Origin: Bdellovibrionota bacterium
GTDB lineage: Bacteria; Bdellovibrionota_C; UBA2361; JBGSMV01
Assembly (NCBI GenBank): GCA_044356455.1
Contig: JBIKWF010000049.1
Coordinates: 1-29,067 of the forward strand
Length of the DNA: 29,067 nt
Direction of reading: 5' to 3'
The notes below the pieces were generated by a model. It was not told where the DNA came from, made no database searches, and worked only from the letters and a program-made list of their open reading frames with translations. Below, piece by piece: positions 922-28,343 of this stretch (positions are counted from its first letter, which is position 1; each line of letters opens with the position of its first letter). A program made the translations under genes and the position numbers.

Positions 922-2154
922 ATGAGAATACACGGGAGCCGGAAGATAATCGGTGGAGTTTTGACAGCCGCTTGCTTGGTCGCCGCGGTAGAAGTGTCAG
1001 CTCAGCCAATGCCCAGTCAAGCCGAGATGTGGCGCATGCTCCAGGCTCAGCAAAAGCAAATTGAGGAGCTCACCAACAAGCTTAAAAAGACTGAGGAAAA
1101 GACTGAAGCCGTCGCGCAGGTGGTCGATTCTCAGGCCGCCCTGCCGTCCGCTCCCGCAAGCAGCGCTCCCAACTGGTATCAAAATACCCAGCTTGGCGGT
1201 TACGGCGAGCTTCATTACAACGGGGGAGACAAGGACGAAATCGACTTCCATCGGTTTGTGGCATTCATCAGTCATCAGTTCAGCGACCGAATCCGGCTGT
1301 ATTCAGAAGTTGAGCTTGAACACTCGATCGCAGGAGACGGGCAGAACGGTGAAGTTGAGTTAGAGCAAGCCTTCCTTGAATTCGATTTGTACGAATCGCA
1401 CCGTGCGAAGGCCGGTCTCTTTCTTTTGCCGATTGGTATTCTTAACGAGAAGCACGAGCCAACTACATTTTTTGGCGTCGAACGGAACCCGGTGGAGAAC
1501 AACATTATTCCGACCACATGGTGGGAAGCCGGCTTAGGAGCTAGCGGTGATATAACAGAGGGCTTCAAGTACGATCTTGCCTTTCACTCGGGCCTTGAAA
1601 CTGCCACGGAAGGAGAAAACGCCTACCGTGTGAGAAATGGCCGCCAGAAAGTCTCTGAGGCGCCTGCGGAAAACGGCGCAGTTACGGCCCGTGTAAAGTG
1701 GACGGGCATCAGTGGGATTGAGCTTGGGATGAGCGGCCAATATCAGCACGATGTAACGCAAGGCGGGGTTGAAGACGGAGTTGAAGCAATTCTCCTGGTC
1801 GGGCATGCCGACATTAGAAAGGGGCCGTTTGGATTCCGCGCGCTCTACGCACAGTGGGACCTTGATGGGGAAGCACCTGAAGCGCTCGGCCGCGACAAAC
1901 AGGACGGATGGTACGTAGAGCCCGCGTACTATTTCGAAACTGGGATCGGTGACTTCGGTGTTTTTGGCCGCTACAATGAGTATGATAACGAATCTGGGGG
2001 CGGCGCTGATAGCAAGTTTGAGCAGATCGATGTGGGTCTCAACTATTGGCCGCATCAGAATGTAGTGCTCAAATTTGACTATGCCTTCCTTGAGGCTCCC
2101 GAAGGCGGCAAGGATGATGACATTCTGAATCTAGGCGTTGGTTTTAATTTTTAA
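922..2154 (+). CDS. Outer-membrane porin (OprO/OprP-like) with N-terminal coiled coil
   Basis: Signal peptide (..EVSA), coiled-coil QQKQIEELTNKLKK, alternating beta-strand pattern (LGGYGELHY, ELEQAFLEF), C-terminal GVGFNF BAM signature. Confidence 0.85.
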   Translation: MRIHGSRKIIGGVLTAACLVAAVEVSAQPMPSQAEMWRMLQAQQKQIEELTNKLKKTEEKTEAVAQVVDSQAALPSAPASSAPNWYQNTQLGGYGELHYNGGDKDEIDFHRFVAFISHQFSDRIRLYSEVELEHSIAGDGQNGEVELEQAFLEFDLYESHRAKAGLFLLPIGILNEKHEPTTFFGVERNPVENNIIPTTWWEAGLGASGDITEGFKYDLAFHSGLETATEGENAYRVRNGRQKVSEAPAENGAVTARVKWTGISGIELGMSGQYQHDVTQGGVEDGVEAILLVGHADIRKGPFGFRALYAQWDLDGEAPEALGRDKQDGWYVEPAYYFETGIGDFGVFGRYNEYDNESGGGADSKFEQIDVGLNYWPHQNVVLKFDYAFLEAPEGGKDDDILNLGVGFNF

Positions 2155-2168
2155 TCGGCCTGTGGTTT

Positions 2169-2225
2169 TCGCCCCCGAGGTACCTGTTGTCCAGAGAGTT
2201 TTCTGGTCAAGTACCTCGGGGGCGA
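2169..2225 (+). other. Strong intra-operon stem-loop after the porin gene
   Basis: Perfect 15-bp inverted repeat TCGCCCCCGAGGTAC (2169-2183) / GTACCTCGGGGGCGA (2211-2225) with inner CCAGA/TCTGG stem; no downstream U-tract. Confidence 0.7.
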
Positions 2226-2244
2226 GACTGTAAATACGGAAGGT

Positions 2245-2766
2245 ATGTGGCGCGCTGTTTGTATTATTTTTATTGGATGCTGGCTGCAGTTCCCTGCACC
2301 TGCTTTTACTGATCAGGTGTATCAGCAGCCCGCTGAGTTTCTTAAAGAAGTCTTTAACGGAACTATTCCGCCTGCCGCACTTCTCGACATTACTGGAGAG
2401 CGCCGTGCCAAGGTTACGGAAATACTGGACCATCAACCTAACTACTTACGGATGCGGTATTGGCGAAGCGGGGAACGGAGCGCCTGGGTGCTCGAGGAAA
2501 TTGGAAAGGTAAAGCCGATCACCACTGGAATCATCATCAGCGGCACCGAAATTGAGGACGTTCGTATACTCATATACCGGGAGAGTCATGGAGGTGAAGT
2601 GCGCCATCGATATTTTACCAAGCAGTTCGCTGGGGCAAAGCTCGAACCTAAGTTAGCATTGTCAAAGAATGTTGACGGCATTTCGGGAGCAACTCTTTCG
2701 GTTAATGCCATTCGGCGCTTGGCCCGCGTTGCGCTCTTCTTGCATAATGAATCGGGTAAATCGTGA
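2245..2766 (+). CDS. Exported FMN-binding (flavinylated) protein
   Basis: Signal peptide; VDGISGATLS carries the [S/T]GA[S/T] ApbE flavinylation motif; YRESHGGEV motif typical of the family. Confidence 0.88.
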   Translation: MWRAVCIIFIGCWLQFPAPAFTDQVYQQPAEFLKEVFNGTIPPAALLDITGERRAKVTEILDHQPNYLRMRYWRSGERSAWVLEEIGKVKPITTGIIISGTEIEDVRILIYRESHGGEVRHRYFTKQFAGAKLEPKLALSKNVDGISGATLSVNAIRRLARVALFLHNESGKS

Positions 2767-3518
2767 CAAGTTCCTCGTTTCGCCGTAACTCTCTCAAGCT
2801 TTCATACCGGTTGCATCGGACTATCGGTCTCTGTATCGCCCTGCCTATCCTTGTTATCGCGGTAACCGGAATACTTTTGAATCATTCCGTCGCACTTAAG
2901 TTAAACGACCTCTTCATTACTAATCAATTAGTCCTCTCGTGGTACAACCTCGTTCCTCGCACGCCTGCGCAGGGCGCCCAGACAAATAAGCATTGGTTTG
3001 TCGTAGTAGAGGATCTTCTTTATTGTGACGCCGTTAGGCTCTCTGAGATATCAGGGACTCTCAGAGGCGCGGCGGTTCTTAGAGACATCTCAGTGGTCGC
3101 CACCACTGCTGAATTGATTGTGGTGGCTCCGGATTGTAATTCCGTTGTCGAAAAACTTGGCCCCGAGTCTCTTCCTGCGGGGGAGATAAAGGCAATCGAA
3201 GCCGCGGGCGATCGCTTCTTCGTTGAGACTTCTTCCGGAGTGTATGAAAGCCCGCCGTCTCTCGCCAATTTCCAGATTTCCAGCCGTTCCCCTTTGGCTT
3301 CTCGCGAGCCCGGATCGCCCCCGCCGGAAATTTTGGAGAGAGTCCTGGATGACTGGCGGCAACGGGGAATTAGTGCGTGGCGCGTCATAATAGATATGCA
3401 TAGCGGCGCGATATTCGGTCGGTTTGGGTCCCTTATAGGCGATGTTGCCGCGCTAGCCCTTATCGCCCTTGTATGGAGTGGATGGTATAATTCCAGGCGA
3501 AAGAGAGCCGTGCGATGA
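2763..3518 (+). CDS. PepSY-associated TM-helix membrane protein (putative heme b reductase)
   Basis: RLHRTIGL...TGILLNH N-terminal TM and IDMHSG...C-terminal TM with conserved His; GTGA overlap with the upstream gene. Confidence 0.85.
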   Translation: MTSSSFRRNSLKLSYRLHRTIGLCIALPILVIAVTGILLNHSVALKLNDLFITNQLVLSWYNLVPRTPAQGAQTNKHWFVVVEDLLYCDAVRLSEISGTLRGAAVLRDISVVATTAELIVVAPDCNSVVEKLGPESLPAGEIKAIEAAGDRFFVETSSGVYESPPSLANFQISSRSPLASREPGSPPPEILERVLDDWRQRGISAWRVIIDMHSGAIFGRFGSLIGDVAALALIALVWSGWYNSRRKRAVR

Positions 3519-4489
3519 AAGGTAGTAAGACTTTCAGCCGGCGGCGGTTTTTGAAAATCATGGCAGCCTCCTCGGCCGCGGTGTTCCCTCATTCATTTTG
3601 CTATGCCAGTGAGCCCGGGCTTTCACCGCTGTATTCCCGCGAATGGCGCGGCACAGTGATGGGGGCGGAAGCTAGCCTGCGTTTCAATGTGGAACGAGAA
3701 GAAGATGCTAAACACCTCGAGCGCCTTTGTCTGACTGAGATCCAGCGCCTCGAAGAGATTTTTAGTCTTCATAGAGCGGGCTCTTCGCTTCGCACTCTCA
3801 ATCGCCAAGGATTTTTGCAAGACCCAGAGCCTGAGCTTGTTGAGTTGCTAACGGAATCAATTCGCTTCGGAGATCTGTCTCGCGGCCGGTTCGACGTCTC
3901 TATTCAGCCGCTTTGGAAATATCTCTACTATCAAGACGGTGAGCCAGAAGCTCAACGGGTAGAGGAGCTTAAAAGGCTCATCGATTTCCGGGCGATCTCG
4001 GTCGCGGCCGATCGAGTCTCTTTTGCCCAAAAGGGAATGGAAGTTACTCTCAATGGTATCGCACAGGGATTCATCACCGATAAAATTGCCACTTTGCTGC
4101 GTGCGGCAGGGCAGCAGAGTGTTTTAGTGGAGCTGGGAGAGACTTATGCCTTGGGACGGAATCTCTACGGAGAGCCTTGGCAGATAGGTATTCGCAATCC
4201 ACTTCGGAACAACGATGGCGAGTTGTTCGCGGCAGTTTCCCTTGAGAATAAGGCTATCGCCACTTCAGGCGGATATGGCATGCCCTTAGGTCAGGTCGGC
4301 CAAAATCATATTTTGGATCCTAATACGGGACAGAGCCCTACTTTTTTCCAAAGTGTCTCAGTGATCTCTCCCCGGGCAACCTGGGCAGACGGCCTTTCAA
4401 CTGCACTTTATCTTATGCCGCGAGAAGAGCATGCGCTGCTTACCAATTCGTTCCCAGAGACCTTTACTGTTATCAATCCTGTAGGATGA
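3515..4489 (+). CDS. apbE: FAD:protein FMN transferase with Tat signal
   Basis: SRRRFLK Tat motif; MGAEASL, FDVSIQPL, LNGIAQGF, AIATSG, HILDP, ADGLSTA motifs; ATGA overlap. Confidence 0.93.
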   Translation: MKGSKTFSRRRFLKIMAASSAAVFPHSFCYASEPGLSPLYSREWRGTVMGAEASLRFNVEREEDAKHLERLCLTEIQRLEEIFSLHRAGSSLRTLNRQGFLQDPEPELVELLTESIRFGDLSRGRFDVSIQPLWKYLYYQDGEPEAQRVEELKRLIDFRAISVAADRVSFAQKGMEVTLNGIAQGFITDKIATLLRAAGQQSVLVELGETYALGRNLYGEPWQIGIRNPLRNNDGELFAAVSLENKAIATSGGYGMPLGQVGQNHILDPNTGQSPTFFQSVSVISPRATWADGLSTALYLMPREEHALLTNSFPETFTVINPVG

Positions 4490-4813: not shown

Positions 4814-5538
4814 GTGGGAGATCTTATAGAGGCACGTCCCCGACCGGCTTTTGGTGGCACGGAGGTCGCGAGGCTCCCTTTTGGCCCACCGGCACTTCAC
4901 GCTCGCATTGGAGAGAGGGAACTTGAATTACGCTGGCCTTGCTCGACAGAAACTACGCTCCTTGAGGGTATTCTCTTCAACCCTATCGAGGAGGCGGAGG
5001 CAGTGCAGGGGAGTATCGCCCCACTTCATTTGTTGATGTTGGATGTGGAGATGGCAACCTTACGCGCGCCATGGCGCGGAGCTGGGGCCTCTCGCCTGAT
5101 GCGGCAATTGGAGTTGAGCTTTTCCTAAGGCCGGATACGACCTTTAGTGATGTTACTCTTGTTCCTTTCGATGGGAAGCGATTGCCGTTCCCGGATGCCT
5201 CACAAGAGTTTGTGACGCTCTTTATGGTGCTCCACCACGCTCAGGATCCTCAGGAGCTTATAAACGAGATTAGCCGAGTACTAGGGCCTGGTGGGAGAGT
5301 GTTGGTACGGGACCACGATACTGCCTCTCAGGATGAGGGGCTTTTCTTTGAGCTTACGGATCGTCTCTTTTATTCAGTGTTTCATCAGTATCCTGATATT
5401 CCGATTCCTGGGAATTATCTTTCTCATTCAGCGTGGAGTGCGGCTTTTGAAAAGGCAGGCTTTGCGAGTGAGAAGGTGGCGCGGCTTGAACCTGAGAGTG
5501 CCTTTTCGCCGTTTTTTGCCTTGTATTCTAAGCGGTAG
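4814..5538 (+). pseudogene. Class I SAM-dependent methyltransferase with apparent frameshift near 4963-4980
   Basis: The frame of ORF 5071-5538 extends upstream through motif I (FVDVGCGDG, 5029-5055) to a TGA at 4963-4965 with no in-frame ATG/GTG/TTG. Downstream motifs FDGKRLPF, MVLHH, LGPGGRVLVRDH. RBS-preceded starts exist only in other frames (GTG 4814, TTG 4923). Confidence 0.7.
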
Positions 5539-11225: not shown

Positions 11226-11422
11226 GGCGGCATCCTCCAAAATCTGCCCGATTGTCCCTGGTCTCCCCTAGGGTCGCAAGCATAATTTCCCTTTCAGCAG
11301 GGACTACTTTGCAGTATTAACGACCCCAGCGACCTCACAATCCAAGCCCCGTTGCCGTCTTTCGTTGATTTCTAGAGCGAATGGGGGTGCGCCTTTCTTG
11401 GTCAGTTTATTTTGGTGAAGCT

Positions 11423-12559
11423 ATGAAAATGCGACATGTTCTTTTAGCAACTCTTCTTTCCTTCAACGTAGGATCAGTGGTGCTTGCGCAAGACGCAGAG
11501 ACATACACGGAAGATGGCTTCATCAGCGGGAAAATGGATATTAACTTTGGAACGCGTACCAAGCTTGATACCTCAGAAGATGCGGCGCCTGGGACGCCAG
11601 CTGAGGGAGCGAGGGACACCTACAAGCTCGCACTCAACGTTGCCAAGACGAATGAATATACAGGTACCATCACGCGCTACCCCGAGCGTATCGGCAAGGT
11701 GCTCGGCAGCGTCGAGCAGATGGCCCAGATGATCTTTGATGTAAATATCGCGGTAAGGAACCCCAAGAACCTTGAGCAGAAGAAAAACGTCGGCAAATGG
11801 GTCGGTTCGGTAACCGTTGATAAGAACGGGGCCTATGATTTTGGAACCGCGGCAAGCGGCGCAAGTCCTTTGCGTATGTCGATAGATGCCGTTGGTAAGG
11901 CTTCTGCGTTTGTTGGGCCTTTCACCGGCAAAGTGTACGGGAAGGGTTCAGGTCAGAAGGGTTTGCTAGCCTCGAAAGTCCAAGAATACAGCCGTATGGT
12001 AAACGGCAAGAAGGTTGTGATTAAGGTAAAGCAATCTGACCCTCTACGCTTTGATGTGACGCTCGGCGAAGGCCCGGCCCAGGTTTATCCTCGTACCAAG
12101 GTTAACGGAAATCTTGATTATGATTATGATACCGGTAACTGGCTCACTAACGGCATCCGCTTTAAGTACCAGCAGGGCGGAAAGGATGTCGAGGACGTGG
12201 TCACGGGTTCCATCAAATGGGTGGAGGATGCTAACCGCTCTGAAAATGGAAAGGGTCAGTACGAGTTTAATCTTAGATTTAACGAAGCGGTGGTGAAGGG
12301 AGCTCCGGATGAAGGTGCGGCGTTCTCTGGGGACGGCAGCGAGGATGCGTTCTTCGAAGTGGACGATACTGTTCCTGCAATGACGGGAACGGTGGCGTAT
12401 GTCGATACTTTTGCGCCTGCCATGAGCGAGGATGAAGAACCCGCGGTTACCGCGAGTGCGGTTACTTACAATATTAATGTAAACCGACTCTCTAAGGTGC
12501 AGGCCGTGAACTTGTTCAAGCTGCTCATGGTCATCACTGGACCGATGAATGATGAGTAG
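11423..12559 (+). CDS. Secreted beta-rich hypothetical protein, GPxNDE family paralog 1
   Basis: Sec signal MKMRHVLLATLLSFNVGSVVLA (start moved to ATG 11423); aligns end to end with 12747-13868; ends GPMNDE. Confidence 0.85.
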   Translation: MKMRHVLLATLLSFNVGSVVLAQDAETYTEDGFISGKMDINFGTRTKLDTSEDAAPGTPAEGARDTYKLALNVAKTNEYTGTITRYPERIGKVLGSVEQMAQMIFDVNIAVRNPKNLEQKKNVGKWVGSVTVDKNGAYDFGTAASGASPLRMSIDAVGKASAFVGPFTGKVYGKGSGQKGLLASKVQEYSRMVNGKKVVIKVKQSDPLRFDVTLGEGPAQVYPRTKVNGNLDYDYDTGNWLTNGIRFKYQQGGKDVEDVVTGSIKWVEDANRSENGKGQYEFNLRFNEAVVKGAPDEGAAFSGDGSEDAFFEVDDTVPAMTGTVAYVDTFAPAMSEDEEPAVTASAVTYNINVNRLSKVQAVNLFKLLMVITGPMNDE

Positions 12560-12569
12560 AGTTTACTAG

Positions 12570-12700
12570 GGACCCTTTGAAAAAAGTTCGCCTTCGTGGT
12601 CACTGTGGCCATTGTGGTTTTTAGGACAACCACTAAGACCACAGAGACCACGAAGGGGGAAGAACTGGGTACCAAGCTTGCGGGTTCTTCAGGGGGGCCC
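12570..12700. mobile_element. IS5-like MITE with CTAG target duplication
   Basis: CTAG at 12566-12569 and 12701-12704; ends GGACCCTTTGAAAAA / TTCTTCAGGGGGGCCC; internal palindrome CCTTCGTGGTCACTGTGGCCATTGTGGTT...AACCACTAAGACCACAGAGACCACGAAGG. Confidence 0.7.
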
Positions 12701-12746
12701 CTAGGTAGTGATTGGTTTCAGTGCTCTCAACGTAAAGGGATTTCGA

Positions 12747-13868
12747 GTGCGGAATTTTTGGATGCAAAGTGCGCGGCTCTTAGGCGCGGGAATGGTTTTG
12801 GCAGGCGCCGTCTGTTTTAGCGCAGGTGCATATGCAGAGACCACTTCAAAATCTTCGCCTGGACCATTAGCTGCGTCATCCCCAGTGGCAGCGCTTGGCA
12901 TCCGCGGCTCGATGCATATCGATTTTGGCTCGCGGCTCCAGCCCGAGGGGACCGACACCTACGATGTTGACCTTGTGTGCGCCGAGGCGCTGCGCATTAA
13001 GGGCAAAATTGTGCGCCAGCCGCGGGAGCTGTCTGCCTTCTTAGGACGAGAGAAAAAACCTCAGGAGCTGCACTACCACCTCGTCTTTTCGGTTATCAAT
13101 CCAGCGAATCGTTCGGATGAAAAGCGCGCGGGGCTCATGTCGGGGATAGTGAAGGTTCGAAGTGATGGTACTTACGACCTTTCTGGCCTTAAGATTGAGG
13201 GAAGCCTTCCGCCTTTCGCCTATCCTCTCTCGGGGGAGTTTGGTGGTGCGATCAAGGGCAAGGCCTCTAATAAGGCGGGGCTCCTCAGTGCGGCGTATAG
13301 CCGTGTCTTCGGTGGGAAAAAGGTTACCGTTGTGCTTTCAAAGGTTGACCCTCTTTCCTTTGACCGAGTTCAACTAGCAGGAGGACCACTTAACTTTTAT
13401 CCCCAAACGAGCGTGAGCGGTTCTCTCGACTTCGACTATGAAACGGGAAACTGGCTTTCCCCTGGAATAACATTTTCTTCAGGACCTGGGTCAGGGAAGA
13501 AGGACGTGGTGACAGGAACTATCAAGTGGATTGCGGGGGAGGATCGCTCAACCACAGGAATCGGCAAATACGATTTTAATCTTCGGTATAACGAAGCGGC
13601 CCTCGCGGCTCCAGTGGATGAGAGTGCGGCCTTCTCGGCAGTCGAGAACGAGGAAGCGTTCTTTGTCGTTGACGATAGGATTCCAACATTAAAGGGATCG
13701 GTTTCCTACAAGGATGAGTTCGGAGTCTCGGAGTCAGAGGAGGAAGAGCCTTCCGTGGTATCGAGTGAAATTTCCTATGCCCTCGAGGGTAACAAGCTTT
13801 CCAAAGAGCAGCTCATTACGTTCATAAAATGGTGGCTTCTCCTTGTTGGCCCGGTAAATGATGAATAG
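12747..13868 (+). CDS. Secreted beta-rich hypothetical protein, GPxNDE family paralog 2
   Basis: Likely GTG start at 12747 after AAGGGA; signal ending SAGAYA; shares DY.TGNWL, DVVTG.IKW, Y.FNLR.NE, AFF.VDD blocks with paralog 1; ends GPVNDE. Confidence 0.85.
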   Translation: MRNFWMQSARLLGAGMVLAGAVCFSAGAYAETTSKSSPGPLAASSPVAALGIRGSMHIDFGSRLQPEGTDTYDVDLVCAEALRIKGKIVRQPRELSAFLGREKKPQELHYHLVFSVINPANRSDEKRAGLMSGIVKVRSDGTYDLSGLKIEGSLPPFAYPLSGEFGGAIKGKASNKAGLLSAAYSRVFGGKKVTVVLSKVDPLSFDRVQLAGGPLNFYPQTSVSGSLDFDYETGNWLSPGITFSSGPGSGKKDVVTGTIKWIAGEDRSTTGIGKYDFNLRYNEAALAAPVDESAAFSAVENEEAFFVVDDRIPTLKGSVSYKDEFGVSESEEEEPSVVSSEISYALEGNKLSKEQLITFIKWWLLLVGPVNDE

Positions 13869-15643: not shown

Positions 15644-16567
15644 TTAGTTGGGCGCCTTCCATGCCGTACGAAGTACGTCTGCTTGCTGCGAAAGGGCAGT
15701 TTCAATTGACGCAACCTCTCGAAGGGGAAGGGATAGATACGTGAAGGTATCATCCCCCATCCTTAATGCCAGAATTGGTAAGAAGCGGTCATCAATGCCC
15801 GCATAGGTTCCCCGGCTTTTGGTGCCAGAAAAGGTAACAACTTGGATAGGCGTGCCTTCTGCAAAATCGCTTCGAATGCGGAGGACCTCATTAGTATCGG
15901 GCGCCTGCATCTCGTTTCCTCTCCACGTTGCTGGTTTGGAGAGGTTAGTAAGCACCTCAATTGAACGAATAGTGATCGTGGTCTTCTCCGGGTCGGGCAG
16001 AGTTTGTCTACGTTCGCCATCAATAAATACAAAGCCTCCCTTCTCAGTTCTTGTGGAGGAGAGGGTTCCTTCCACCGCAACTTTTTCCCCTCCTTCAAGC
16101 TCAAAACTCACGCGGAGTCTCTTGCCCATAAGGGCGCAGAGGCAAGGCGCCAGCTCGGAAGGGAGATCGTTGACGGAGCGATCCCACACGCAAAGAAGAG
16201 GATTGTAGTCAGCCTGAACTTTGGGGTGTTTAGGAAGTCCTTCCCTGAGTACTCGCGCAATGGAAGCACCTTCATGCCGCCCTAGCAGATTTCCCTCTTC
16301 GAACGGGGGCACATCTTGGAGACGAAACTCCTGCTCGTTCACGTAATTCAGTCTTCCTGAAACGCTCATAGGGGCAGCGCGTCCGGGGACAGCAATTTGC
16401 AAAACGATGCTTTCCCGCCGAGATGTGGTGCCCAGCAGCTTAAAGAGTAAGGCGGCGCAGTCCCCACGAATGGTGAGCAGGCCTGGAACGGACTGAATGA
16501 GCTCAATTCCAGCTGCACCTTGGAATGGCGGTTGCCGGGTAGCCGTATGAAATTTGGTTTCTGTCAT
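15644..16567 (-). CDS. Hypothetical protein with three putative Sm/SH3-like beta-barrel repeats
   Basis: 307-aa ORF; three segments with a strand-Gly turn-strand-G.L/Y pattern, two ending IRSIE / VASIE. Confidence 0.65.
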   Translation of the reverse strand: MTETKFHTATRQPPFQGAAGIELIQSVPGLLTIRGDCAALLFKLLGTTSRRESIVLQIAVPGRAAPMSVSGRLNYVNEQEFRLQDVPPFEEGNLLGRHEGASIARVLREGLPKHPKVQADYNPLLCVWDRSVNDLPSELAPCLCALMGKRLRVSFELEGGEKVAVEGTLSSTRTEKGGFVFIDGERRQTLPDPEKTTITIRSIEVLTNLSKPATWRGNEMQAPDTNEVLRIRSDFAEGTPIQVVTFSGTKSRGTYAGIDDRFLPILALRMGDDTFTYLSLPLREVASIETALSQQADVLRTAWKAPN

Positions 16568-16896
16568 AGCGTTGGGCGTAATCGATTTGGTTCAGGATAA
16601 CTTATAGCCACTCACGGAGCGCATGTCTGGGCCTCAGTAGCTGGGCATGCTCGTAAAGGTATGGTTTATTATTCCAGAATTTGATTCAAGCTCGCATAGG
16701 TAGTTGAATTAAAGCTTCTTTCCTTCCGCTCATGCGCCTGTGGCAGCGCGCTGCACTTGGGCGTGCGAGAAAATCCGGCTAACTATCTGAGATTCTATGG
16801 GCTTCTAGCCGCCTCATTTTCCGCTTAAGTATTTCCAGTTCTCTGCCGACGAAATAAGCGTGTAGGTCTTTCAATCGCCGGGGAGGGCTGCGTGCA

Positions 16897-17298
16897 ATGA
16901 AGATTACCAGCTGGTTTCGCATTTCAGTCATTGCTGTGGGTATATTCGCTGCACTGACGATGCCTCCACAGGCCTTTGCCATAAACTACCGCGTCACTGC
17001 AGTGCTCTGTGATGGAGAGCACACTTTTACCGCCGTCGACAATAAGTACATTCTTGACTCGGCGGAGGAGGCAGGAATTGACTTGCCTTATTCTGATCGC
17101 GCCGGAACCTCCTTAACTTCATTGGCGGTTCTCGTGAGTGGAACCGTGGACCAATCAGACCAGAATGCGCTAACCGAAGAGCAAGTCGCTCGGGGTTTCA
17201 TGCTCTTGGATGTGGCGTATCCGCGCTCTGATGTGCGAATGCAGATATGCGGAGCGTTAGACAGTCTTAATGGTGGGAACCCGCCGGTTTGCCCTTAA
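16897..17298 (+). CDS. Secreted plant-type ferredoxin homologue lacking all four [2Fe-2S] Cys ligands
   Basis: Sec signal ending QAFA; YILDSAEEAGIDLPYS-D-RAGT-S-LT-S...SGTVDQSDQ...GFMLL-D-VAYPRSD keeps the exact x4-x2-x29 ligand spacing; GGAGG RBS. Confidence 0.9.
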   Translation: MKITSWFRISVIAVGIFAALTMPPQAFAINYRVTAVLCDGEHTFTAVDNKYILDSAEEAGIDLPYSDRAGTSLTSLAVLVSGTVDQSDQNALTEEQVARGFMLLDVAYPRSDVRMQICGALDSLNGGNPPVCP

Positions 17299-17349
17299 CT
17301 TACGGGCAGGGAGACCCAGATAGTTCGAGGTAAAAAATATCGAAGGGGC

Positions 17350-19272
17350 CTAGAACCCAAGTAGTCCACCAAGCCCTTTCTTCCCGCCTTCGCCCTTCTT
17401 GCCTTTGAGAGCTTTTTCAAGAAGGTCGGAAGCTTTGTCTTGCAGCATCTTCTTGGCGCCAGTCTTCATCAGGCGGTCAATATTCGGCACCACCGTGAGT
17501 TTCTGAGCAGTGCCTTTAAGGGTGAGCGGGACTACAAGGCGTCCCTTGGCGTCTAGAACCGATTCAAGCTCCTTCACCTTCTTTGCGAGGGCAGCCGACG
17601 TCGTGGGGTTAAATAGAATCGTCGCGTTCAGATCTACTTCAGCATTAAACCCCACAGTTCCGTCCGCCTCTAGGTCAAAAAGGTTACTAAAGGCTTTTAA
17701 ATCAGGCGTGCGAATGAGGCCGTCAGAAAAAGTAAATGAACCAGTAACTTTCGAGAGAGCAGTATCTGGGCTATCAAGCTCTCCTTTTTGATCGGGAGGT
17801 AGCGCGTCATAGAGCGCTCCGGAGACAAACGGAAGGCCTTTCAATGCCTTCAGCACGGAGCCGGCGAGATTTACTCCTTTCACTTCCACGTTACTAAGAG
17901 AGAGATTTGCATTTCCAGAGAGCGCGTGGGGGAGGGGGCCGGCCAAGGGGCCTGAAACATTCCCCTTTACGCTATCAATAGTCGCCGAGAACTTCTGATC
18001 GGCAGGTTTTTGCCCCGTAGCGAGGAGCGCCTGTCCAACATTGAGGCCGCTCGCAGAAAAAGACGCGCTGAATGCTTGTTTGCCCTCCAAAGAAAGTTCC
18101 GCACTTGAAGTTAACGTTCCAGAAAAGAGCGAGGAGTTAAACTCGGAAACTTTCACCTGGGGGGAGGAAAATGTTCCTGCGAAGGCAACGCTTAATGGTT
18201 GGCCATTTAAGGACAGGCCAATTTTTTTCGTACCGAACTGAACGAGTTTCCCCTGCGCACTTGAGGTTAGATCTCCGGTAAGGTCAGCAATCTGAAAATT
18301 ATTCGCGGTGGCAGAGACTTGTTTGAGCGAAAGGGCTCCTTCAGATTGGTAGCCCTTTTGTGCTCCGCCCAAGGTTGCTTGAGCGGTGATTCCTAGAAGG
18401 CCTTTGGCCTGCAAATCGGGGGCTGCCGCGAGACTAAGGAGAGGCTTAAAAGCTTCGAGAGATAGCCCTGGCCCTTCCAGCGAAATATGTCCCTCCTGTG
18501 AGTCCAGATTTAGCTTCGCCTTAAAGATGAGAGTGTTGCCGAGTATGCTGATGGCAAGTTTTTCTGCCGAAAAGTCTTTGCCAGTTAGTCCTAAACTCGA
18601 GCCTTGGATGCTCAAGGGAATATTGCCATTGGCTCGCGCTGAAGCATTAAGTTGGGGCAGCGTGAAATTTTTGCCCGAGAGCTCGACGCTTGTGTCCAGG
18701 TTCACTTGGTCAAGCACGTACTTTTTGTTTCCTAGTCTATCGTCGAGGGTAATGGTGGCGTCTTTTAGCCGAAAACTCTTCAGCCCAAGATCAAGTGGAG
18801 GCGAAGCAGTTGATGAAGCGTCCCGGGCTGAAGTATTTTCCTCTGTGGGGGCAGGGGATGGGGAGGATTTCTCCCCAGAGCTCTTGCCGCGGGGGAGCCC
18901 TGAAACCCAGGTACCTGTGCTGTCCTTCACGAGAGCAATCGTAGGACTTAAGATGGTAAAGGAAGAAACTTCTAGCTTGCCCTTGAGCAAGGCCAGAAGC
19001 TCAACGTCGAGGGCGATGTCCCTTAGCGTAAAGGGCTCACTTTCGTCCTGTGAGCTTACGCGTAAGTCTTGAAGACTGAACCTCGCCGAAGGGAAAATCG
19101 AAGCTTCGATCGCACCTATGGTAACTTTCCCGCCAACGGCTTCCCCTGCAACTTTCTCAAGTTCCGGCTTAAATGACGCGATCAGTGAGTTCGCGTTTGA
19201 TATGGCAAAAGCGAATAGTCCGCCTACGATCAGAACAGCTGCTATGACGATGATAAGAAAGGCTCGTTTCAT
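17350..19272 (-). CDS. AsmA-like envelope protein
   Basis: N-terminal TM anchor, LLALLKGKLEVSSFTILSP, long beta-rich body, AsmA-like C-terminal region (G.F.F.DG.I.T.DL...G.VGF...VPL.LKGT). ATG 19272 preferred on RBS spacing. Confidence 0.88.
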   Translation of the reverse strand: MKRAFLIIVIAAVLIVGGLFAFAISNANSLIASFKPELEKVAGEAVGGKVTIGAIEASIFPSARFSLQDLRVSSQDESEPFTLRDIALDVELLALLKGKLEVSSFTILSPTIALVKDSTGTWVSGLPRGKSSGEKSSPSPAPTEENTSARDASSTASPPLDLGLKSFRLKDATITLDDRLGNKKYVLDQVNLDTSVELSGKNFTLPQLNASARANGNIPLSIQGSSLGLTGKDFSAEKLAISILGNTLIFKAKLNLDSQEGHISLEGPGLSLEAFKPLLSLAAAPDLQAKGLLGITAQATLGGAQKGYQSEGALSLKQVSATANNFQIADLTGDLTSSAQGKLVQFGTKKIGLSLNGQPLSVAFAGTFSSPQVKVSEFNSSLFSGTLTSSAELSLEGKQAFSASFSASGLNVGQALLATGQKPADQKFSATIDSVKGNVSGPLAGPLPHALSGNANLSLSNVEVKGVNLAGSVLKALKGLPFVSGALYDALPPDQKGELDSPDTALSKVTGSFTFSDGLIRTPDLKAFSNLFDLEADGTVGFNAEVDLNATILFNPTTSAALAKKVKELESVLDAKGRLVVPLTLKGTAQKLTVVPNIDRLMKTGAKKMLQDKASDLLEKALKGKKGEGGKKGLGGLLGF

Positions 19273-27929: not shown

Positions 27930-28343
27930 TCATAAGGAATCGGCATTGCAGAGTTCCTTGAGAACCTCGATTGCGGTTTGCGCTGTTAGTTTGAACGGGT
28001 CGAAGGGCTGCCCTTGTAGAGAGCGAGGAGACTTCCCCGCATTCGATTCGGGAAGACGTACCAACTTCATGCGCCAGGCAGGAAACTCACGGGCAGGCTT
28101 TTCTTGGAACTCCATGAGCTCGATATTCATATGGCGCTCATCTTTGAGGAGCTTGTGGTAGAGCGTTGACAGGCGGGTACGCTCTCCCTCGATCACCTGG
28201 AGGAACATTCCGCGCCCGAAGACGAGTGCTCCCGTGATATTATTCTCCGTATTGAAAATCTCGGCAGCGTCAAGGACCGCTTGAAGCTCCTTGAGAGCAA
28301 GGCCCTCTTTCGCGCGGCTCGCATAGATAAGATGGTGAACCAT
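27930..28343 (-). CDS. Stand-alone BLUF blue-light sensor
   Basis: LIYAS (Tyr), N...NITGAL, FLQVIEG (Gln), DERH, REFPAWRM (Trp/Met) all present. Confidence 0.93.
   Translation of the reverse strand: MVHHLIYASRAKEGLALKELQAVLDAAEIFNTENNITGALVFGRGMFLQVIEGERTRLSTLYHKLLKDERHMNIELMEFQEKPAREFPAWRMKLVRLPESNAGKSPRSLQGQPFDPFKLTAQTAIEVLKELCNADSL

Follow-up and report, generated by a model that had tools for sequence, protein, structure and literature searches.

Within the window analysed here, the 29,067 nucleotides of contig JBIKWF010000049.1 (Bdellovibrionota bacterium, assembly GCA_044356455.1), we describe a ferredoxin-like open reading frame (ORF) of 133 amino acids, located at 16897..17298 on the forward strand, in which all four cysteine ligands for an iron-sulfur (Fe-S) cluster are replaced. 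Because these ligands are gone and a Sec signal peptide is predicted, we propose with moderate confidence that the product is an exported, Fe-S-free ferredoxin fold which acts as a small non-redox binding protein and not as an electron carrier. The ORF opens at the first possible start codon past an in-frame stop. The sole alternative start, the Met22 codon at 16960, has no ribosome-binding motif upstream, and a start there would delete the signal peptide.

The family searches show that the mature part of the protein is a plant-type ferredoxin. It matches Pfam Fer2 (PF00111) with 24.3 bits (cut-off 21) and NCBIfam TIGR02008 (fdx_plant) with 86.9 bits (curated cut-off 81.15), the plant-type family being the best-fitting one. 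A phmmer search of the PDB returned 54 distinct sequences at E <= 0.01. Ferredoxins of plants, algae and cyanobacteria make up nearly the whole set, and the best match (3p63_A, E 1.2e-22) spans residues 30-114. Identity to plant-type ferredoxins amounts to 50-55% across about 87 ungapped residues, and the best ordinary relative, P0002, is 55% identical in a gap-free BLASTP alignment of 87 residues. The PDB and TIGR02008 scores thus bear out the preliminary description, which had placed the mature region close to PetF-type ferredoxin.

HMMER, MAFFT and gap-free BLASTP alignments agree that the four cluster-cysteine columns are occupied by D67, S72, S75 and D105 with the x4/x2/x29 spacing intact, so that the D/S/S/D pattern with unchanged spacing, as first noticed in this gene, is recovered by three methods. 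The codons read from the sequence also agree with the earlier remark on the two Asp residues: both are GAT, two changes away from TGY. Our protein search, which was word-based and covered 5.8 billion clusters, listed 120 proteins, and since 111 of these relatives keep the C-C-C-C ligand set, the substitutions are not a matter of chance. Judged by its sequence, canonical 2Fe-2S ligation is impossible in this ferredoxin-like protein.

To describe the pattern of substitution we used the 111 ordinary (C-C-C-C) ferredoxins from the same search as the comparison set for column conservation. Of the 56 columns conserved in at least 80% of them, 37 are retained and 19 changed. The changes are concentrated in loop 66-78, where 8 of 12 such columns differ; beyond it, 11 of 44 differ (Fisher p = 0.014) and 33 are retained. 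In the loop, several of the changes go toward bulkier hydrophobic residues (S73L, A76L, K78V); the other changes around the cluster include F91A, D93T, D94E, T104L, C105D and E121L. Helix 1 and the segments SGTVDQSDQ and VAYPRSD are unaltered.

The electron-transfer surface is not retained: our protein carries A91, T93/E94/E95 and L121 at positions where ordinary ferredoxins conserve F, D, D and E at 97%, 95%, 90% and 97%, respectively. We take the E121 column to be that of the critical Glu94 of Anabaena ferredoxin. A91 occupies the position of Anabaena F65, where electron transfer to FNR is reported to require an aromatic residue (PMC4791469, accessible part). The acidic face of helix 1 is largely retained (D54, E57, E58, D62). 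In these alignments, therefore, the scaffold is conserved while the redox face is dismantled.

The predicted structure is consistent with this picture. The AlphaFold2 (AF2) model, based on an 85-sequence alignment, reaches a mean predicted local distance difference test score (pLDDT) of 83, with core blocks at 92-97 and a drop to 57 at the C-terminal end. Compared by Foldseek with solved ferredoxins, the model fits 4zho_A with a template-modelling (TM) score of 0.93 and a root-mean-square deviation (rmsd) of 1.4, the rmsd values ranging from 1.1 to 1.4. The model allows us to predict with confidence that the beta-grasp ferredoxin fold is retained. The ESM Atlas returned generic Fer2 clusters only, at 0.81, which is under the useful range.

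The N-terminus presents the parts of a signal peptide: K2 and R8, a hydrophobic stretch of 14 residues (9-22) with 9-residue Kyte-Doolittle means up to 2.8, P23-P24, and A26-F27-A28 ahead of I29. Neither a twin-arginine nor a lipobox Cys is present in residues 1-28, and the AF2 pLDDT stays below 50 at residues 1-20. By rule, the n/h/c build and the A-F-A cut site agree with the Sec-type signal lacking a twin-Arg that had been described before. We also considered whether the signal peptide is the homologue of an algal presequence, as the alignment to P0046 reaches the N-terminus; the similarity was unconvincing and this candidate was rejected.

As had been observed, three cysteines lie outside the ligand columns; their codons are TGT for C38 and TGC for C118 and C132. 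Cysteine is absent from the first two columns in the ordinary ferredoxins and rare in the third (Table 1). Columns 46 and 113, which hold a non-ligand Cys in 57% and 59% of the ordinary ferredoxins, carry A46 and V113 here. The whole cysteine complement has thus been replaced, which is what one would expect if the protein now folds in an oxidising compartment. This organism could form disulfides in the periplasm, since its genome encodes a homologue of VKOR-type disulfide oxidoreductase (88 bits, G000:C145:719-1132, within a 446-aa open frame). No match to DsbB was obtained in the host genome, and a VKOR homologue without DsbB suggests a VKOR-based, perhaps fused, periplasmic disulfide system.

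In the beta-grasp fold, the first and last strands are parallel neighbours. DSSP on the AF2 model assigns strand 1 to residues 30-37 and the last strand to 113-116; C38 lies one residue past the former and C118 two residues past the latter, which makes a C38-C118 disulfide plausible by topology. A C118-C132 bond is the alternative pairing.

Based on these features, the path we propose begins with Sec passage of the unfolded precursor across the inner membrane and cleavage behind A28. The mature protein of 105 residues would then take up its fold in the periplasm, from where it may be passed further out, and two of the residues C38, C118 and C132 would form a stabilising disulfide. In Anabaena ferredoxin, the ligand pairs C41/C46 and C49/C79 each hold one iron. 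In our protein, side chains would replace the cluster, each Fe-binding Cys pair having become an Asp/Ser pair, D67 with S72 and S75 with D105. These pairs could hydrogen-bond each other and the loop amides, and the two negative charges of the oxidised centre would be preserved, while the cavity would be occupied by L73, L76, V78 and L104. We expect the product to be a small acidic protein of beta-grasp type. Because the old electron-transfer face is dismantled and the rest of the scaffold kept, its ligand is probably something other than the classical ferredoxin partners.

Table 1 Positions of the ferredoxin-like gene, its expression signal and the residues discussed in the text (window coordinates).
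Feature	Position	Strand	Basis or remark
Shine-Dalgarno-like GGAGG	16882..16886	+	10 nt ahead of ATG; read from sequence
Predicted Sec signal peptide, aa 1-28 (MKITSWFRISVIAVGIFAALTMPPQAFA), cut after A-F-A	16897..16980	+	rule-based: n/h/c regions and -3/-1 rule
Mature ferredoxin-fold domain, aa 29-133	16981..17295	+	PDB phmmer, TIGR02008, AF2, Foldseek
C38 (TGT), new Cys just past strand 1	17008..17010	+	Cys frequency 0.00 in 111 ordinary ferredoxins
Remodelled cluster loop D67-R-A-G-T-S72-L-T-S75, first three Cys ligands replaced	17095..17121	+	sequence and alignments
D67 (GAT), ligand column	17095..17097	+	
S72 (TCC), ligand column	17110..17112	+	
S75 (TCA), ligand column	17119..17121	+	
D105 (GAT) at fourth Cys-ligand position	17209..17211	+	sequence and alignments
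C118 (TGC), new Cys two residues past last strand	17248..17250	+	Cys frequency 0.00 in 111 ordinary ferredoxins
C-terminal extension GGNPPVCP, eight residues, contains C132	17272..17295	+	columns gapped in 92-99% of ordinary ferredoxins
C132 (TGC)	17290..17292	+	Cys frequency 0.01 at that column in 111 ordinary ferredoxins

The results uphold the core of the initial idea of a cluster-free ferredoxin fold working outside the cytoplasm: the ligands are gone, the cysteines have been turned over, a Sec-type signal and a VKOR homologue are found, and the fold positions are kept. The decoy function offered with it is weakened, and a conserved family of such proteins found no support.

Several points weigh against an exported, cofactor-free binding protein. 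Only rules underlie the assignment of the signal peptide. The AF2 model draws on homologues that bear a cluster and says nothing on the stability of the fold without its cluster, and plant-type apoferredoxins are poorly folded. Both the disulfide pairing and the Asp/Ser pairing are inferred, and the odd number of cysteines (three) leaves one of them without a role in a single disulfide. Around the gene, we saw no partner, operon mate or regulatory motif that gives a functional clue. As no orthologue was found past a 99% identical variant, purifying selection is not measurable, and this may be a lineage-specific gene of little or no function. Finally, the contigs from RNA libraries described below may derive from DNA carry-over.

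The distribution of the gene is indeed narrow. Its own cluster has two members which share 132 of 133 residues (I3V), and the next proteins listed are ordinary ferredoxins at no more than 60% identity. This cluster mate, 99% identical, is the only other D-S-S-D protein among the 120 listed, so that a conserved family combining D/S/S/D with a signal peptide found no support in the homology search. The metagenome scan gave the same result, as all 80 kept loci (of 484 relatives) were C-C-C-C when their translations were read, and the apparent N-terminal matches were read-through of non-coding sequence. The 80 loci kept in the viral scan (of 372) were also all C-C-C-C, 77 by pattern and 3 by eye. 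No orthologue was detected in 60 related genomes. The lineage is thinly sampled: the AsmA protein of the same-genus genome G001 is 45% identical, and the best LpxK in any database 64%.

Six of the listed relatives, P0023, P0041, P0050, P0051, P0068 and P0115, resemble our protein in that all ligands are replaced by acid and Ser. On the other hand, they have no signal peptide, their ligand pattern is another one (G-D-S-E in three, G-D-S-D, S-D-S-D and G-D-S-G in one each), they possess none of the three new cysteines, and their identity to our protein is 45-48%. These proteins are roughly 100 residues long; P0261 is also included in the family, and an Aspergillus stella-maris protein that bears the name ferredoxin falls in the cluster of P0051. 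The prokaryotic genomes and viral contigs searched gave no locus of the G-D-S-E family.

We compared the position of our protein in trees with and without the altered columns. In a quick maximum-likelihood tree of 120 rows, it sits on an end branch of 1.32 changes per column (median 0.05), and when the loop and fourth-ligand columns are left out the branch measures 1.08 (median 0.062). The first tree joins it to the six Cys-less G-D-S-E-type proteins with a support of 85 in the SH-like approximate likelihood-ratio test (SH-aLRT). Without the loop columns, a free search placed it elsewhere with a support of 66, and a search constrained to keep it with the six Cys-less proteins ended 25.8 log-likelihood units above this free quick search, with a p value of 0.87 in the approximately unbiased test (p-AU), which does not reject the grouping. 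This seven-protein grouping was named after the first tree had been seen, and it joins long branches. The seven proteins have six otherwise rare states in common (T71, S75, A77, V97, A98, R110). When six ordinary ferredoxins were drawn at random 1000 times, a draw shared three states at most, which is a weak control, as random draws are not clades. On these sequences, the resemblance of our protein to the G-D-S-E proteins may reflect either kinship or convergence.

The gene was probably acquired horizontally, long ago. This is suggested by the absence of any other plant-type ferredoxin from its own genome, by a single match, weak and within a 710-aa frame of genome G054, among 123 other genomes of the phylum, and by the best ordinary relative, P0002, whose cluster includes a Synechococcus protein. 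A donor of cyanobacterial type is the simplest guess. A recent transfer is ruled out by the host-like GC content and by the GC content at third codon positions (GC3), which is 0.545 for the gene and 0.50-0.60 in the eight neighbouring genes.

The altered loop could also be a metal site. Two carboxylates and up to four hydroxyls stand in a loop that was built around a metal centre and whose spacing is preserved, and an oxygen-donor site for a metal or ion (e.g. Ca2+, Mg2+, Mn2+, Fe3+) at D67/S72/S75/D105 together with T71 and T74 would make this an exported, periplasmic metal-binding or metal-stabilised protein. Acid and Ser recur in the independent Cys-less family described above, and in the Arabidopsis mFDX-like structure one metal ion is reported to occupy the site of the cluster (PMC10069907, accessible part). 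However, the bulkier hydrophobic residues L73, L76, V78 and L104 look more like the filling of a cavity than like a polar coordination shell, and no metal-related neighbour, riboswitch or regulator was seen around the gene; we thus regard a metal site as unlikely.

The preliminary description also offered a ferredoxin mimic or decoy, i.e. a released look-alike that competes with real ferredoxin for Fus-type receptors or for ferredoxin-dependent enzymes of cyanobacterial or algal neighbours or of prey. The identity of 50-55% and the acidic helix-1 face, much of which is that of cyanobacterial ferredoxin, speak for this idea, as do the predicted export, the lake-water habitat of the host and its nearest named relatives by LpxK, metagenome-assembled genomes (MAGs) labelled Bdellovibrionales (50%) and Deltaproteobacteria (42%); the name of the lineage is that of predators. 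In the Fus/pectocin system, ferredoxin folds are also reported to be used extracellularly (PMC5095587, PMC3302902, PMC6071955, each in its accessible part). Against it, the partner-contacting face around the cluster is the most altered part of the protein: A91 replaces the required aromatic residue, and D93, D94 and the equivalent of Anabaena E94 (E121) are changed. Four ferredoxin residues are reported to form salt bridges with FusC, and one of them, D49, reads N in our protein (PMC6071955, accessible part).

The genome does not strengthen the decoy idea either. No Fus-type pair of a TonB receptor and an M16 protease was found in it (93% complete, 216 contigs): the three receptor matches lie on contigs C127, C156 and C66, and the five M16 matches on the separate contigs C137 and C132. 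With the assembly in this state, there is a small chance that such a cluster has been split. No toxin-fused form was seen, all four longer relatives being ordinary C-C-C-C ferredoxin fusions, and an iron-free kind has no known precedent. The decoy is thereby weakened, and we consider it improbable. We judge just as sceptically a wider version, in which a captured cyanobacterial-type ferredoxin became a secreted iron-free look-alike that engages foreign ferredoxin-recognising proteins (uptake receptors, enzymes of phototroph neighbours or prey) and belongs, with the fungal-type G-D-S-E proteins, to an unrecognised cofactor-free clade with Asp/Ser pairs in place of the cluster. If true, a ferredoxin mimic acting between organisms would be a new kind of molecular mimicry.

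The orphan status of the gene, its very long branch, the lack of operon partners and the lack of measurable selection would also suit a decaying or functionless remnant of a horizontally acquired ferredoxin, which persists by chance in one lineage. The intact frame of the gene in lake-water DNA argues otherwise. The stretch recurs in lake-water and freshwater metagenome runs (24 rows from 23 studies, one of which may be the source). A 2383-nt contig of one lake-water DNA run is identical across 16500-17333, and a 919-nt contig of a second run differs at three positions, namely 16772 (intergenic), 16903 (I3V) and 16950 (synonymous, A18). The gene and its upstream flank are free of frameshift in these contigs, so that the source and two additional runs all show an unbroken frame, with far too little variation for an estimate of selection.

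Three metatranscriptome contigs of 151-236 nt (two runs of one study) fall on the gene with 0, 0 and 1 differences, which count against a remnant and give a weak hint that the gene is transcribed. Elsewhere in the 18 kb around the gene, the same two RNA runs yielded only one 85-nt piece (12580-12664), and the missing cover on the neighbours carries no weight, because the runs were picked for containing the ferredoxin-like gene. A remnant is further disfavoured by the 33 of 44 conserved non-loop columns that are retained although the branch amounts to about one change per site, by the orderly Cys turnover, by the gain of a well-formed signal peptide and by the host-like composition. We therefore give the remnant little credence.

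That C38, C118 and C132, perhaps with H42, rebuild a thiolate metal site, Fe-S or other, at another place in the fold is very improbable: three cysteines and a nearby His are present, and Cys3His sites bind 2Fe-2S clusters in other proteins, but Sec hands unfolded chains to a compartment without cluster-assembly machinery, H42 is also found in the best ordinary relative P0002 and is hence not a new acquisition, and C132 lies in the low-confidence tail.

We return to the exported, cluster-free fold and compare it with known systems. With plant-type ferredoxin (PetF/Fd I), our protein shares the family score, the predicted fold, helix 1 and the segments SGTVDQSDQ and VAYPRSD. It differs by the loss of all four Cys ligands, which are the defining mark of that family, by a remodelled loop and altered aromatic and acidic electron-transfer residues, and it adds the predicted Sec signal peptide, three cysteines and an 8-residue C-terminal extension. 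Pectocins M1 and M2 of the Pectobacterium Fus system are similar in sequence (8jc1_A, M1, E 1.1e-15; 4n58_A, M2, E 2.5e-12), and in this system, too, a plant-type ferredoxin fold is used outside the bacterial cell. There, the ferredoxin cluster is reported to be the iron source, and pectocins are described as fusions of ferredoxin and toxin domains with no signal peptide (accessible parts of PMC3302902 and PMC5095587). Our protein, in contrast, has no cluster ligands, no cytotoxic domain (its 133 aa hold the ferredoxin only) and no Fus-like pair in its genome.

Loss of the cluster has been reported for two other members of the 2Fe-2S superfamily. The mFDX-like protein of plant and algal mitochondrial complex I is described as a structural subunit which has lost its ligands and holds no Fe-S cluster, most algal members being without all ligand cysteines and the partner-binding acidic residues being unconserved (PMC10069907, accessible part). 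It belongs to the adrenodoxin/mitochondrial lineage and is a conserved eukaryotic matrix family in a known complex, whereas our protein comes from a bacterium, is an orphan and has a predicted export signal. The N-terminal domain of L-proline dehydrogenase type (PDB 1Y56) is reported to have lost the chelating cysteines and kept the inserts, and its authors suggest a reuse for other ligands (PMC1949818, accessible part). This domain is ancient, very divergent and part of a cytoplasmic enzyme, whereas our protein stands alone and is about 55% identical to working ferredoxins. Our protein shares the 2Fe-2S descent and the ligand loss with both, belongs to neither lineage and at most works in a similar way.

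Plant-type ferredoxin domains behind an export signal are also found in lipoproteins of Bacteroidota type (P0040, P0102, and L092 at 4989-5519 in a Saccharicrinis MAG). In P0040 and P0102, D and S take the places of the first two ligands ('YSDRAG.S'), as they do in our protein, with D-S-C-C overall. These lipoproteins differ by a lipobox signal (Cys after L-N-S or similar) and an N-terminal extension of roughly 80 residues. P0040 and P0102 retain the last two ligands and L092 all four, and with 44% identity they are no closer to our protein than ordinary ferredoxins are. Export of a ferredoxin as a lipoprotein together with its cluster would be unusual, and these lipoproteins may be further cofactor-free exported ferredoxin folds, with the two retained cysteines as a disulfide.

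In the literature searched, mostly without subscription journals, we came across no account of a plant-type ferredoxin that is exported or Cys-less. Cluster-free derivatives of 2Fe-2S ferredoxins and the use of the plant-type fold outside the cell are already known; what is new is the combination of a plant-type lineage, replacement of all ligands, a Sec signal and new cysteines. The protein offers a natural example of an Fe-S protein converted to a cofactor-free exported scaffold, still about 55% identical to working ferredoxins, and thus a useful test case for what keeps the ferredoxin fold together without the cluster. As its score lies above the TIGR02008 cut-off, annotation pipelines will call it a 2Fe-2S ferredoxin and include it in inventories of electron-transfer proteins. 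As it stands, it is a single-lineage curiosity.

The gene is flanked by a divergent gene for a 307-aa protein on one side and a convergent AsmA-family gene on the other, and genes for the envelope and lipid A lie around it (FabZ, PPK2, MsbA, KdtA, LpxK). Genome G001, of the same genus, is too distant for a useful comparison of gene order and lacks synteny on the ferredoxin side. Near the gene, no Rfam family reached its gathering score and no promoter-like or terminator-like consensus sites were seen; PADLOC gave no match. ORFs of 392, 386 and 307 aa (11381-13868 and 15644-16567) match no Pfam or NCBIfam family. The 307-aa divergent neighbour has no PDB relative, and the four genomes searched yielded a single homologue of it, a frame of 26% identity in the same-genus genome.

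In the convergent gap between the ferredoxin-like and AsmA genes, the contigs break off and resume at 17318-17375 in each of two independent lake-water runs. An imperfect 15-nt inverted repeat (17341-17355 / 17378-17392) lies there, and the site may be a hairpin assembly break or a variable spot. Further away, co-directional genes at 922-4489 encode porin-like, FMN_bind, PepSY_TM membrane and ApbE flavin transferase proteins. This set resembles an extracytoplasmic flavinylation/electron-transfer module. Its distance to the ferredoxin-like gene is 12 kb, and no link between them was seen. The window also encodes a stand-alone BLUF blue-light sensor of 137 aa on the reverse strand (27930-28343, Pfam E 8.6e-27).

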